Shown in pieces: positions 8,159 to 13,080 of a DNA stretch of 36,208 bases. A model generated the notes under the pieces. That model worked only from the letters and a program-made list of their open reading frames with translations, ran no database searches and had not been told where the DNA came from. Source of the stretch: Phenylobacterium sp. (GTDB taxonomy: Bacteria; Pseudomonadota; Alphaproteobacteria; Caulobacterales; Caulobacteraceae); NCBI GenBank assembly GCA_035627295.1, contig DASPLZ010000332.1:1-36208 (forward strand), given 5' to 3'. The position numbers and the translations under genes are program-made. Numbering within the stretch: the first letter of the stretch is position 1; the number at the start of each line of letters is the position of its first letter.

Positions 8159-10854
8159 ATGGCCGCCCGCACGACCTCCCTGCCTGAGCAGCTGCGCGAG
8201 ACCGTTCGCCTGCTCGGCCGCCTGCTCGGCGATGTGATCCGCGAGGAGGACGGCCAGGCGGTGTTCGACCAGATCGAGGCCATCCGCCAGGCCTCGGTCG
8301 GCTACCATCGCGAGGGAACGGCCGATGCGGCGCGGCTGATGTCCGAGCGCCTGGAGGGGCTCAGCCTCTCCGAAACCGTGCGCTTCGTGCACTCCTTCGC
8401 CTGCTTCCTGCAGATCACCAACATCGCCGAGGACCACATCCAGCGCCATCGCGGCGACGTCGGCGACGACCGTGAAGACACCTTGGCCGGCGCCCTGCGC
8501 GCCCTCCGGGCCGAGGGAACCAGCGCGCAGGAGGTGCTGGCGCTGCTGGCGGAGGCCCTGGTCGCGCCGGTGATCACCGCCCACCCCTCGGAGGTGCGGC
8601 GCAAGAGCGTGCTCGACCGACAGGCCGCCATCGCCGGGCGGCTGGAGGCCCTGGCCGGCGCCGCGGGCCCGGCCGAGACGGCGCGCATCGAGCGCGACAT
8701 GCGGCGCGAGATGTCGCTTCTGTGGCGCACCCGGCTCCTGCGCGGCGCGCGGATCGGCGTCGAGGACGAGATCGAGAACGCCGTCTTCTACCTGACCCGC
8801 AGCATCCTGGCCGAGCTTCCGCGGCTCTACGCCCACTGGACCGACCTCATGGGCGCGGCGGTTCCCTCGTTCCTGCGGGTCGGCTCCTGGGTCGGCGGGG
8901 ACCGCGACGGCAACCCCAACATCACCGACGCCGTGATGCGCCGGGCCATGGCGCGGCAGTCCAAGGCGGCGCTCGACCACTACCTGGAGCGCATCCACGA
9001 CCTGGGGGCGGCGCTGTCGGTCTCCTCCAGCCTGGTCGATGTCTCGCCGCCCCTGGCCGCGCTCGCCCGGCAGGCTCACGACGCCTCGCCGCATCGGGCG
9101 GACGAACCCTACCGCCAGGCCCTGACCGGCATCTATGCGCGACTGAGCGCCACCTATCGCGACCTGGTCGGCGCCGAGCCCACCCGGCCGCCCGCCGGAG
9201 CCGCCGAACCCTACGACGGGCCGGACGCCCTGCGGCTCGACCTGCAGACGGTGCAGGACTCCCTGCTGCCGCTCACGGGCCGGCGTTCGAAGCCGGCCCC
9301 CTGCCCGACCTGATCCGGGCGGTGGAGGTGTTCGGCTTTCACCTGGCGCGTCTCGATCTTCGGCAGAACTCCGCGGTCCACGCCCGCGTGGTCGCCGAGC
9401 TGCTGGCCAAGGCGGGCGTCGCCCCGGACTACGAGGCGCTGGACGAAGAGGCGCGGTGCGACCTGCTGCTGGCCGAACTCGCCCACGGCCGGCTGCTCTA
9501 CAGCCCCTTCGCCGACTACGGTGAGGAAACGCGGCGCGAATACGCCATCCTCGCCGCCGCGGCCGACATCAAGCGCCGCTACGGCCGCGACGCCATCCGC
9601 GCCTACCTCGTCTCCAACACCACCTCGATCTCCGACCTGCTGGAGGTCTACATCCTCCTGAAGGAAGTCGGCCTCTTCCAGCCGGGCGATCCGGCCCGCA
9701 CCCAGGTCTTCGCCGAACCGCTGTTCGAGACCATCGCCGACCTGCGGGCCGCGCCCGACATCATGCGCCGCTACCTGGCCCTGCCCCTGATCCGCCCGCT
9801 GGCGCGCCAGGTCGGCATCCAGGAGGTGATGATCGGCTATTCGGACTCCAACAAGGACGGCAGCTACCTGACCTCGGTGTGGGAGCTCTACCAGGGCTCC
9901 GCCGCCCTGGCCGAGACCATGCGTGAAGCCGGTCTGCGCCTGCAGCTCTTCCACGGCCGAGGCGGCGCCGTGGGCCGCGGCGGCGGCTCCAGCTTCGACG
10001 CCATCCTCGCCCAGCCGCCGGGCACGGTCGGCGGGCGCATCCGCATCACCGAGCAGGGCGAGGTGGTGGCCAACAAGTACGCAGATCCCGATCTCGCCCG
10101 CCAAAGCCTGGAAACCCTGGCCTCCGGCGTCGTGCTCGCCTCGCTGCGCAAGGCCGGGCCGGCCCTCGACCCCGGCCGCGCCGAGACCATGGACGCCCTG
10201 GCCCGCGAGGCCATGCGCGCCTATCGCGGCCTGGTCTACGAGACCCCCGGTTTCGCCGACTACTTCTTCGCCGCCACGCCCATCGCCGAGATCGCCGACC
10301 TCAACATCGGCAGTCGCCCGACCTCGCGCCAGGCGACGCGCACCATCGAGGGCCTGCGGGCGATCCCCTGGGTGTTCGCCTGGTCCCAGTCGCGCGCCCT
10401 GCTGCCCGGCTGGTTCGGCTTCGGCTCGGCGGTGGAACGGGCGGGCGTTCCGATCGAACGGCTGCGCGAGCTGCACGAAAGCTGGCCGTTCTTCTCCTCC
10501 ACGCTGGCGAACATGGAGATGGTGCTCTTCAAGGGCGACATCGCCCTGGCCGCCCGCTACGCCGGTCTGGCGCCCGACCGCGCCCTGGCCGACCAGATCT
10601 TCGGCGAAATCCGTGCGGAGTGGGACCGGACGGTGTCCGCCGTCCTGTCGATCACCGGCCAGGCCGAGCTTCTGGAGCGCAATCCGGACCTGGCGGCGGT
10701 GATCCGCTCGCGCCTGCCCTACATCGACCCCCTGAATCACCTGCAGATCGAGCTCCTGCGCCGCCTGCGCGCGGGCGACGACAGCGCCGAGGTGCGCGCC
10801 GGCATCCACCTGACCATCAACGGCATCGCCGCCGGCCTGAGGAACACCGGCTAG
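8159..10854 (+). pseudogene. ppc: Phosphoenolpyruvate carboxylase interrupted by a single-base frameshift near 9268 (pseudogene or sequencing error)
   Basis: The N-half (8159-9313) has ITAHPSEV and GSWVGGDRDGNP. The C-half, in another frame, has FGFHLARLDLRQNS, MIGYSDSNKDG, FHGRGGAVGRGGG, LRAIPWVF and the terminal GLRNTG. Adding one G at CTG CTG (G)CC GCT CAC joins the two. Confidence 0.9.
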
Positions 10855-10903
10855 AGCGCGTTAGGCGGAAGTGGAAGCCGGTTCCGCCGGCTAGCGCGCT
10901 CTA
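10852..10903. repeat. Palindromic intergenic element of TAGAGCG...AAGTGG...CCGGTT...CGCTCTA type; possible terminator/stabiliser; supplies the ppc stop codon
   Basis: Outer arms TAGAGCGCGTTAG / CTAGCGCGCTCTA and inner arms GGCGGAA / TTCCGCC. From memory it resembles alphaproteobacterial RIME/BRU-RS-like repeats. Confidence 0.65.
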
Positions 10904-10972
10904 AACTAACCCGCTCTAGGCGCCCCCTGCGGCACATGGACAGCCGTCGAGGATCGCCCCATTACTCACCCT

Positions 10973-11722
10973 ATGGTTGGGGATACGGCTGAGACAAGTG
11001 GCGGCGCCGTGGCCGCCTTGACGCCCCGCGAGCGCGAGTGCCTGCGGCTGGTCAACCAGCATTTCAGCTCCAAGCAGATCGCCGCCCGGTTGAAGCTGTC
11101 GCCGCATACGGTCGACAATACCTTGAAGCGCGCCATCCGCCGGCTCGGCGTCGCCGACCGCAGCAGCGCCGCACGGCTCTACGCCAGGTTCGAGGGCGCC
11201 GAGGATTGGTCTAGCCAATCGCCGGCCCTTCAGCCTTTGGCGCTTTCGCCTCCCACTCCCCACAACGACGTCGGGGGACCGGACGATGAGTGGGGCGAAG
11301 GGGCCCGAGTTCGAGAAGGCGATCGCCGAGGGCCGGTGGCTCTCGGAGGAGATCGGCCGCTTCGAAGCCCAGTTCCCGCAGGGCCCGCCGGCGAGCCCGG
11401 AGGATCTGCGCCTGGGCTGGATGCAGATCGAGCGCCAGCTGGTCGACCTGGCCCTGCGCCCATGCGTGAAGGCGATGATCCCGCCCCTGGTCTCGGCGAT
11501 CCGCAAGCACGCCCTGCTGAAGCCGCCGGAGCTGCTGTTCCGGGAGCTCCTGTGCCTGGCCAGCGTGGTCCTCGACGAGGACTTCGAGCCCTCAGCGACG
11601 GAGGGCGGCGTGACCTAGGACTCTTCGAAAAGATCAGCGTGATCGTGCTGCTGATGGCGGCGCTCGCGCTGGCCTTCGGCGGCGTGATCGCCAGCATCAG
11701 CGCGCTGAAGAACCTCGTCTAG
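10973..11722 (+). CDS. LuxR/sigma-70 region-4-type HTH protein with long linker and C-terminal transmembrane helix
   Basis: N-terminal LTPRERECLRLV...SSKQIAARLKLSPHTVDNTLKRAIRRLGVADR (LuxR-type HTH) and a hydrophobic C-terminus ISVIVLLMAALALAFGGVIASI. The frame is uninterrupted and codons at both ends are host-like. Confidence 0.85.
   Translation: MVGDTAETSGGAVAALTPRERECLRLVNQHFSSKQIAARLKLSPHTVDNTLKRAIRRLGVADRSSAARLYARFEGAEDWSSQSPALQPLALSPPTPHNDVGGPDDEWGEGARVREGDRRGPVALGGDRPLRSPVPAGPAGEPGGSAPGLDADRAPAGRPGPAPMREGDDPAPGLGDPQARPAEAAGAAVPGAPVPGQRGPRRGLRALSDGGRRDLGLFEKISVIVLLMAALALAFGGVIASISALKNLV
11286..11618 (+). CDS. Nested 110-aa hypothetical protein in the +1 frame inside the LuxR-TM gene
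   Basis: Own ATG preceded by GGGGGA (11273-11278) and own TAG. By my count only 5 of 110 codons end in A/T. The sequence is globular and amphipathic (LRLGWMQIERQLVDLAL, ELLFRELLCLASVVL). Confidence 0.75.
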   Translation: MSGAKGPEFEKAIAEGRWLSEEIGRFEAQFPQGPPASPEDLRLGWMQIERQLVDLALRPCVKAMIPPLVSAIRKHALLKPPELLFRELLCLASVVLDEDFEPSATEGGVT

Positions 11723-11804
11723 CCGCCGCCGCGGCGGCCAACTTCCGAGAACCTGCACCAAGTCAACGTGGCCGGCGCCCCGCGCGGCCGCGAGGGGGAC
11801 CTTC

Positions 11805-12164
11805 ATGCTTCACCACCGCCGCCAGGCCGCCGAACAGGTGGCCCAGAGCCTCTTCGAAACCGAAGCCGCCATCGATGCGGCCATCGCCGCCGCCGCCAGG
11901 CTGACCGGCCTGATGCCCGCCGCGCGCAGCGACGCCCGGCTCTCCGCCGTCGTCGGCCAGGAGGCCTTCGAGATCGCCTCCGTCACTCTCACCGAGCTGA
12001 TCCAGGCCCGCCGCTCGATCGTCCAGACCCACCACACCCTGGCGGACGTGCAGACCCAGGTCGGCCTGCGCGCCGTCAGCTTCGGCGGCGGCATCGACAA
12101 GCCGGCCGCCGAGCAGGCGGGCGAGCGCACGCTGAGCGTGGTGCCCGAGGGCGCCGCCGGCTGA
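11805..12164 (+). CDS. Hypothetical 119-aa Ala-rich helical protein
   Basis: SD GAGGGGG upstream and high GC3. Helical-hairpin pattern (AAEQVAQSLFETEAAIDAAIAAAARL...ARLSAVVGQEAF...ARRSIVQTHHTLADV) followed by a FGGGIDKP tail. Confidence 0.85.
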   Translation: MLHHRRQAAEQVAQSLFETEAAIDAAIAAAARLTGLMPAARSDARLSAVVGQEAFEIASVTLTELIQARRSIVQTHHTLADVQTQVGLRAVSFGGGIDKPAAEQAGERTLSVVPEGAAG

Positions 12165-12171
12165 CCGAGCC

Positions 12172-12675
12172 GTGATAGGCTCGGCGCCTCGCGTCCGGGG
12201 GGCCGAGCCGATTCACGATCTTCTCGCCAGTCTCGTGCCGACCTCGCCTCTGCAATGGGTCAGCCACGTCACGCTCGTGGCGGCCGTACTCTACGCCTTC
12301 TGGGCCGGCGGGCCGCCCGAGCGCCTGACGGCCGGCGCCGTCGCCCTGGCCTACCTCGCTTCGCCCTACGCCCAGCTCTTCACCAGCCTGGTGGAGCCGC
12401 AATACGGCGTGCTGTTGGTCGATGCGGCGCTGCTGGTCGTGCTGTTCGGCCTGTCTCTCGCGTTCAATCGCCGCTGGCTGCTCTTCGCCACGGCCGCCCA
12501 CGGGCTCGGCGTGCTGACCCACCTCGCCGTCGTCGCCGAGCGGGCCCTGCTGCCCCGCGCCTATCTCAGCGCCAACATCGCGACGGCCTATCTGGTGCTG
12601 GGCGCCCTGACCTTCGGCGCCTGGCGCCACCGCCGGCGGCGGATTGTGAACAGCCCCGATCTTTACTCCCGCTAG
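12172..12675 (+). CDS. Hypothetical multi-pass membrane protein (GGxPER motif)
   Basis: About 5 hydrophobic segments, WAGGPPER motif, an intramembrane Asp (LLVDAALL), RRWLLFA and a basic C-tail. Start uncertain (GTG 12172 or GTG 12235). Confidence 0.8.
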   Translation: MIGSAPRVRGAEPIHDLLASLVPTSPLQWVSHVTLVAAVLYAFWAGGPPERLTAGAVALAYLASPYAQLFTSLVEPQYGVLLVDAALLVVLFGLSLAFNRRWLLFATAAHGLGVLTHLAVVAERALLPRAYLSANIATAYLVLGALTFGAWRHRRRRIVNSPDLYSR

Positions 12676-12717
12676 CCCCGGCTGCACGGTGCCCCCGCCA
12701 ATAGCGGGGAGACTGGC

Positions 12718-13080
12718 GTGGAAGCGCATCTGGTGGACAGGCACGTGGGCGTACGTATCCGGGCCCGGCGTCGCCAGTTGGGGATTTCGCAGCAGCTGCT
12801 GGCCGACACCATCGGCTGCACCTTCCAGCAGGTGCAGAAATACGAGAACGCCAGGAACCGGGTCAGCTCCTCGCGGCTGTTCGAGATCGCCAAGGTGCTG
12901 AAGGTCAATCCGTCCTACTTCTTCGACGGCCTGCCGATGTCCGACCTCGAACCGGGCGAGCCGCCGCCGGTGTTCGGCCCCGAAGAGGTCGAGATCGCCC
13001 GCCTCTTCATGCAGATCAGGAACCCCACCCGCCGCAAGGTGCTGGAACTGACCCGCACCCTGGCCGCCGAGACGGCCTGA
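12718..13080 (+). CDS. XRE-family transcriptional regulator (alphaproteobacterial 'FQQVQKYE' subfamily, Rtr-like)
   Basis: VDRHVGVRIRARR...SQQLLA...TFQQVQKYENARNRVSSSRLFEIAKVLKV...YFFDGL. GTG start after GGGAGA. Confidence 0.92.
   Translation: MEAHLVDRHVGVRIRARRRQLGISQQLLADTIGCTFQQVQKYENARNRVSSSRLFEIAKVLKVNPSYFFDGLPMSDLEPGEPPPVFGPEEVEIARLFMQIRNPTRRKVLELTRTLAAETA

Follow-up and report, generated by a model that had tools for sequence, protein, structure and literature searches.

A 110-residue gene lies in the +1 frame wholly inside the linker of a GerE/LuxR-type regulator with a predicted membrane anchor in the window (the entire 36,208-nt stretch of Phenylobacterium sp. DNA that was analysed), and this DNA is dual-coding, with selection acting on both frames. 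Dual coding had been proposed from the letters alone (the sequence-only reading); it is now backed by the selection on both frames and by proteomic data already in print for the likely counterpart in Caulobacter crescentus (PMC4117421). Both proteins are almost certainly real. The arrangement is not first seen here, having been shown once before in C. crescentus (Schrader 2014; PMC4117421). New relative to the papers searched are its conservation across the family, the selection tests, an outgroup that lacks the nested gene, and repeats resembling operators. The best overall explanation, in which we place slightly more belief than doubt, is dual coding in which the nested protein likely has its own start, is probably made from the mRNA of an internal promoter, and would feed back on the host as its partner in the cytoplasm.

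The locus in the window

The sequence-only reading had placed the nested gene within a host of 249 residues at an offset of +1, and both genes lie exactly there (Table 1); the SD-like GGGGGA that it had noted is likewise present, 7 nt 5' of the nested ATG. The described switch in codon bias was reproduced: in the host frame, GC3 falls from 0.88 (10973-11200) to 0.45 across the nested gene and rises to 0.97 in the tail, and 105 of the 110 nested codons end in G or C, leaving the five in A or T counted earlier. The linker of the host is made up of G, P, A and R to 18, 17, 15 and 12 percent, respectively. The host ATG has no SD (SD energy +2.2), which fits a leaderless mRNA, and the host message of the window copy is, from these letters, likely to be leaderless.

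Table 1. Features of the host/nested locus and its neighbours, in window coordinates
Feature	Position	Strand	Remarks
Host gene, 249 aa	10973..11722	+	GerE/LuxR-type HTH, G/P/A/R-rich linker, C-terminal TM helix
GerE HTH domain, host aa 15-69	11015..11179	+	PF00196, E 9e-13
Inverted repeat GATTGG-N5-CCAATC, early linker	11204..11220	+	candidate operator of the putative internal promoter
SD-like GGGGGA of the nested gene	11273..11278	+	duplex energy -8.6 kcal/mol
Nested gene, +1 frame, 110 aa	11286..11618	+	predicted N-terminal helix and three-helix core (~aa 40-100)
Rare host Leu codon CTA making the nested TAG stop	11615..11618	+	read from the sequence
Host TM helix, aa ~221-245, 4 residues beyond	11633..11707	+	hydropathy 2.7
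F2, 119 aa	11805..12164	+	cassette gene; predicted helical hairpin and disordered tail, no family
F3, ~150-167 aa	12172..12675	+	cassette gene; hydrophobic and likely to cross the membrane several times; no family
XRE (HTH_3) regulator	12718..13080	+	Pfam match; beside the cassette

The two in-frame ends of the host, which had been taken as the stronger argument for its reality, were recovered as an N-terminal DNA-binding domain (GerE HTH, by Pfam) and a single C-terminal TM helix (by hydropathy only). The tail beyond this helix is short in the window and in the other loci printed, and in none of these does a periplasmic sensor domain follow it. No autoinducer-binding Pfam domain matched the host at E<=1 and its HTH is N-terminal, unlike in the LuxR quorum-sensing receptors. 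The earlier caution that an open host frame is weak evidence by itself was justified: just 0.4 host stops are expected in the window, and the open frame there is therefore unremarkable. It is the homologues, not the window alone, that supply the excess of openness over chance.

The expectation that the nested product is globular and helical is in line with its structural model, a predicted three-helix core with a pLDDT of 81.6. The nested protein, F2 and F3 all fall outside the families of Pfam and NCBIfam. Neither the nested model nor F2 matched a PDB entry at E<=0.001 with Foldseek, ESM Atlas gave no usable match, and a PDB sequence search with the F3 profile gave 0 matches. With VIA-align the best hits of the nested model (Z 6.9, rmsd 2.6, 62 residues aligned) are generic three-helix bundles within the background, so that no fold match of the nested protein points to a function.

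The host/nested pair heads a conserved cassette with F2 and F3. Among the 156 loci with enough DNA, F2 lies downstream in 148 and F3 in 151, the nested gene being kept without a downstream F2 in the remaining eight; a gene for an XRE regulator occurs at a distance of at most 2 kb in 94/161 loci. Elsewhere in the window genome a third F2-F3 pair was seen with no HTH host upstream (L212; C462:1115-1450, minus strand), and two further loci (L205, L206) carry tandem F2 genes and no host.

The assembly was compared with contigs of public sequencing runs. One 2096-nt contig of run X1, which may be the assembly's own source, aligns without a gap over 10864-12959, as do two contigs of another run, X2, over 11183-11870; the RNA run X5 yielded scattered contigs only. 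No gap was thus found around 11200-11290 or 11600-11625, where two compensating indels could have turned a single fused HTH-domain-TM protein into the apparent nesting. As a separate observation, the PEP carboxylase gene (ppc) at 8159-10854 is split into two ORFs by a frameshift; this is likely an assembly error, because contigs of runs X2 and X3 have one additional C after 9267.

Conservation, selection and the outgroup

As a single-protein query the nested protein matches 75/90 genomes of its own genus and 0/60 genomes from other families of the order. The nested profile matches 117/300 Caulobacteraceae genomes, in 13/25 genera, and a wider profile 1/2 family genomes and 0/348 genomes from other families of the class. 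Named records of the nested protein, for the 80 of 157 matches listed, are mostly from Phenylobacterium or Caulobacteraceae, and Caulobacter is present among their cluster members. Among proteins clustered at 50% identity, 182 representatives match, and the protein ranges from 82 to 135 aa across the family. In the public protein records looked at, the entry called hypothetical protein is the host in some and the nested protein in others. A second full cassette, with a nested protein 43% identical, is found in the window genome on contig C144 (L031:1010-1762).

Altogether 203 loci were examined, of which 161 are distinct: a first set of 33, 30 from the profile search of the family, the 80 listed named records, and 60 weaker matches of that profile search picked by hand. 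All were chosen via the nested protein and the sample therefore does not give the fraction of hosts that lack it. The nesting proved to be conserved, with the host frame open from the HTH across the nested gene to the TM helix in 150 of the 161. The others are two in which the TM helix overlaps the nested end (L184, L189), one whose sole departure is an earlier nested stop (L195), two cut by contig ends (L023, L188), one with the TM helix lost (L093), one with an internal TAG in the nested gene (L033), and three with a broken host (L148, L171, L183), so that linker stops in homologous hosts are not the rule. The last, L191 (2051-2329), holds a nested-family gene with no HTH, F2 or F3 nearby and is the only free-standing copy seen. 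In L183:1742-2498 a frame change joins the nested protein to the TM tail, an error or a rare variant, and the same choice applies to HTH-nested fusions in 3/150 representative proteins (P0066, P0130, P0148).

Selection on the host frame was assessed from its stop codons in 157 loci (L191, L188, L023 and L183 being left out). A synonymous T at the nested third position that would create a host stop is present at 1/2922 sites, compared with 1134/9140 at other sites; ~75 host stops are expected from the codon rates of the window genome and 1 was observed. Among the 44 loci with less than 70% DNA identity the figures are 1 observed and 18.8 expected. Counts are given here rather than P values because related loci are not independent. 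Of the 44 different distances between HTH and nested gene, 43 keep the frame, and the 3968 host codons of this stretch include 0 stops, versus 105 and 122 in the other two frames.

Frame-specific dN/dS, a check proposed with the sequence-only reading, was 0.20 for the nested frame and 2.48 for the host frame that overlaps it, with 0.06 for the HTH (59 disjoint pairs each) and 0.18 for the TM tail (55 disjoint pairs). The nested frame, which has homologues in the genus and the family, is thus under purifying selection. The value of 2.48 indicates a tether without function at the level of its sequence: the linker is kept open while its amino acids are unconstrained, as expected if the host is read through to the TM helix and the tether is free to vary.

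The nested gene also has its own ribosome-binding site, start and stop, as judged from SD energies and CTA-made stops. The best nested start has an SD energy <= -5 in 95% of 156 loci, a figure inflated by choosing the best of several starts, against 11% of 654 internal ATG/GTG codons. In 77/156 loci the nested stop is built from a host CTA, a codon that makes up 0.85% of Leu codons in the window genome, 23/2129 in the hosts' own HTH and tail, and 4/27 at the same motif in the outgroup. The stop lies on a host N-x-L motif before the TM helix in 89/157 loci.

The outgroup consists of F2 loci from another alphaproteobacterial family, possibly Sphingomonadaceae, in which 77/151 genomes carry F2. 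An HTH-linker-TM gene lies upstream in 30/31 of these loci, and a nested profile match at E<=1 in 0/30. Their linkers average 85 codons, compared with 145 in the nested hosts, and the N-x-L motif is present before the TM helix in 27/30. The +1 frame of these linkers has 30 stops in 2291 codons, no stop in 8/27 linkers and a GC3 of 0.70, so that an open, GC3-rich +1 frame is partly expected from the linker alone; these frames end at the N-x-L motif in the same way as the nested genes. Two Caulobacteraceae cassette hosts with short linkers (L211, L214) have no nested gene. They group among the nested hosts in a weakly supported FastTree tree, suggesting loss of the gene; the same tree places L193 and L247 on the wrong side.

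Two observations on the outgroup sequences may be added. The +1 ORFs of L220, L226, L228 and L229, 89-114 codons long, end in GEAPMT or GEAQMT like some nested proteins and give no nested profile match; possibly they are proto-genes or by-products of host codons. Directly after the HTH in L218-L247, the conserved host motif YQxxxYQ corresponds to an array of TATCAA/TTGATA repeats in the DNA, probably an operator read as protein.

The outgroup cassettes without a nested gene point to birth by overprinting. On sequence comparison the host is probably the older frame, and the nested gene was then probably overprinted on the tether. This reverses the direction given by the sequence-only reading, which had a tether overprinted on a real 110-aa gene. 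A hydrophilic linker has hardly any stops in its +1 frame, which closes at the N-x-L before the TM helix, so that such a birth would have been possible in the line of the Caulobacteraceae. The opposite course, insertion into the linker of an older gene that once stood alone, followed by removal of stops from the host frame, would account for the longer linkers of the nested hosts, for a codon bias that follows the nested frame and for L191 with its missing HTH. We consider it improbable, as the nested protein is matched neither in the 348 genomes from the class's other families nor in the order's 60 (single-protein query), no SD-led free-standing clade was seen, and the nested stops fall so often on a motif common to the outgroup, where the +1 frames end alike.

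The likely Caulobacter crescentus counterpart and a probable internal promoter

In C. crescentus NA1000 an 804-nt CDS has been shown to contain a 360-nt CDS that starts internally in the +2 frame, with LC-MS peptides for both (Schrader 2014, Fig 4E; PMC4117421); peptides from both frames, which the sequence-only reading had proposed to seek, are thus already published for the likely counterpart. The text of that paper names CCNA_00832. We take the host to be CCNA_00823 (= CC_0782; LuxR-like, 884441-885244), since the supplement assigns 804 nt to it and CCNA_00832 is a 900-nt LysR gene. The supplement places CCNA_03941 (884551-884910) inside CCNA_00823 as a new ORF with its start verified by LC-MS and the conservation cell empty, and lists CCNA_00823 as leaderless. 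Both ORFs are therefore annotated in this organism (PMC4117421), contrary to the earlier expectation that standard annotation would keep one.

The C. crescentus pair resembles that of the window in strand, in its +1 offset (334 nt start to start) and in its stop-to-stop distance (110 nt, compared with 104 in the window); its nested CDS measures 360 nt and the hypothetical genes downstream 345 and 450 nt. Three loci of our set (L149, L150, L156) share the layout of the NA1000 locus. In two of them, L150 and L156, the published CCNA_00823 promoter motif (PMC4287350) also recurs at the corresponding -35 position, with 21 and 20 of its 25 letters matching, and these two are ~66 (HTH), 40 (nested), 51-54 (F2) and 36% (F3) identical to the window proteins. 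Through these loci the window pair likely belongs with CCNA_00823/CCNA_03941, an indirect but tight link made by layout, neighbours and promoter motif and not by protein sequences; within this family the window copy has diverged and lies in different genomic surroundings. The promoter motif of L150 (1658-1682) was seen to hold an inverted repeat, CGAAC-N6-GTTCG, that is also present in the published CCNA_00823 promoter.

Of the published start sites, the primary one lies at 885244 (+TAP 80) and a second, inside the host gene and 19 nt before the nested start, at 884929 (+TAP 7437) (Zhou 2015; PMC4287350, supplement); the nested gene of C. crescentus thus has an internal promoter of its own, and the same supplement lists no own TSS for CCNA_00822 or CCNA_00821. 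RNA-seq coverage at the internal TSS rises ~7-fold (99 to 681), far below the ratio of the TSS counts. Overexpression of the XRE gene tgrL lowers CCNA_00822 28-fold, CCNA_00821 24-fold and CCNA_00823 5-fold (McLaughlin 2023; PMC10688885); CCNA_03941 goes from 205 to 0 RPKM, a value made unreliable by the overlap of its reads with the host. The locus is not discussed in the available text of that paper, nor does the available part of PMC4117421 give a function, conservation or origin for the pair. In the open-licence papers searched, bioRxiv supplements aside, no study was found of the function or conservation of CCNA_00823, CC_0782 or CCNA_03941, nor one of the family as such; CCNA_00822 has a single table entry there, CC_0782 one match of no relevance, CCNA_03941 no match and CCNA_00823 no main-text match.

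Between the HTH and the nested start, an inverted repeat scoring >=13 occurs in 33/63 representative loci, against 6-8/63 in four control windows; the window's own repeat, at 12.6, is under this cut-off. In the outgroup, strong repeats were found in 9/30 loci and in 1-4 for the control windows. By eye, the repeats vary between subfamilies together with the recognition helix, a pattern confounded by linkage. The window palindrome occurs once in the window genome, so that no regulon is seen. In L149 one such repeat is centred ~80 nt before the nested start, which corresponds to ~-60 if the TSS is set where NA1000 has it. Activators typically bind around -60 from the TSS, and this position suggests that the tethered HTH may activate a promoter inside its own gene. 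We regard the case for the palindromes as operators of the host, made from the sequence, as evenly balanced. An internal promoter is probably present in the window copy, where a scan for sigma-70 promoters and terminators found nothing. A strict promoter pattern matched 0/157 host starts, and a column count upstream of the nested starts showed no conserved -10/-35 signal.

Role of the nested protein and comparison with known systems

We propose that a weak leaderless mRNA yields the tethered regulator, held by its predicted tail anchor, and that its HTH would bind the palindromes just 3' of the HTH-coding DNA and drive a stronger promoter lying by them inside the linker. The shorter mRNA made there would give the nested three-helix protein and probably read on into F2, with F3 as a membrane partner controlling the host. 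In the weakest step of this scheme, the nested protein may bind the HTH and so damp the loop. A role of the nested protein as feedback modulator is possible, short of probable; we lean to it because the gene was seen apart from the host in a single locus, is sometimes found without F2, and is absent from outgroup cassettes that look to be working. Taken as a whole, a folded 110-aa protein overprinted de novo and fixed family-wide and in paralogues, with the same 750 bases serving as regulator, operators, internal promoter and source of the regulator's own inhibitor, is rather unlikely.

With the same dual coding and internal promoter, the nested protein could instead be the output of the circuit, acting with F2 and F3 or on another target rather than on the host. 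We rate this effector role as somewhat unlikely, close behind that of modulator. It draws on the regular presence of F2 and F3 downstream (148/156 and 151/156 loci) and on the common fall of CCNA_03941, CCNA_00822 and CCNA_00821 on tgrL overexpression, the latter two having no listed TSS (PMC10688885, PMC4287350); the eight loci that keep the nested gene without F2 speak against it, as do the cassettes of the outgroup and of L211 and L214 that do without the nested gene. Those last cassettes also weigh against a toxin-antitoxin pair, a role floated in the sequence-only reading and suggested by a small helical protein, tight linkage and XRE genes nearby. Since the partners are separable in some loci, with nested genes beside a broken or missing host (L148, L171, L191) or without F2, and no Pfam or NCBIfam TA family matches, we disfavour it as very improbable.

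It must also be considered whether the two frames are expressed as fusions, or whether only one is real. Programmed-frameshift regulators of the FseA kind have a conserved shift motif and a single fused product. Functional HTH-nested or nested-TM fusions made by such a shift would recall the three fused representatives and the L183 frame joined to the TM helix, but the SD-led nested start is conserved and in C. crescentus verified by LC-MS (PMC4117421), the nested stop codon is selected, the host frame is open throughout, and the switch in P0066 falls mid-gene and resembles a single indel; fusions as functional products are thus less probable still. That only one frame is real, or that the pattern is an artefact, has next to no chance and is rejected: the window genome assembly is fragmented, has one likely indel nearby in ppc, and shows a host frame whose openness by itself is unremarkable, but against this stand gap-free contigs of two runs, 150/161 intact loci, the selection on both frames and published peptides from each.

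A second gene can be concealed in a low-complexity linker whose codon bias is wrong for its frame. Mammalian XLalphas/ALEX is a case in which a second protein is made from a shifted frame over a low-complexity region, and ALEX binds its host. Overprinting in disordered regions is also known from viruses (PMC11230408). Neither these viral cases nor XLalphas/ALEX have homology to the present pair, in which the nested product is predicted to be the structured one. HigX of C. crescentus (PMC13384398) is, by its description, a different protein from the window host. The host shares with regulators of the ToxR/ToxS and TcpP kind (PMC10269533) a DNA-binding domain held in the cytoplasm by one predicted TM helix, and an adjacent membrane protein as possible partner; unlike them it has a GerE-type HTH, a low-complexity tether of ~145 aa with a second gene in it, and no periplasmic domain.

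The window pair may also be compared with same-strand nested genes of bacteria such as gndA in gnd of E. coli and comS of B. subtilis (PMC11230408); few such genes are characterised, two before 2019 by the count of that paper. As in these, an out-of-frame ORF with its own SD, start and stop lies wholly in a coding gene on the same strand (150/161 loci), is kept by relatives over a narrower range than its host, and both frames are under selection. GndA, however, has 36 aa and sits inside an enzyme whose frame dominates (PMC11230408), whereas the nested protein described here has 82-135 aa and a predicted folded core and dominates codon use, the host stretch being merely a tether. Because the nested gene is long, is conserved in at least 13 genera, has proteomic support for its likely counterpart in a tractable model organism and is missing from the outgroup cassettes, its birth by overprinting and the function of its product are directly testable one frame at a time.
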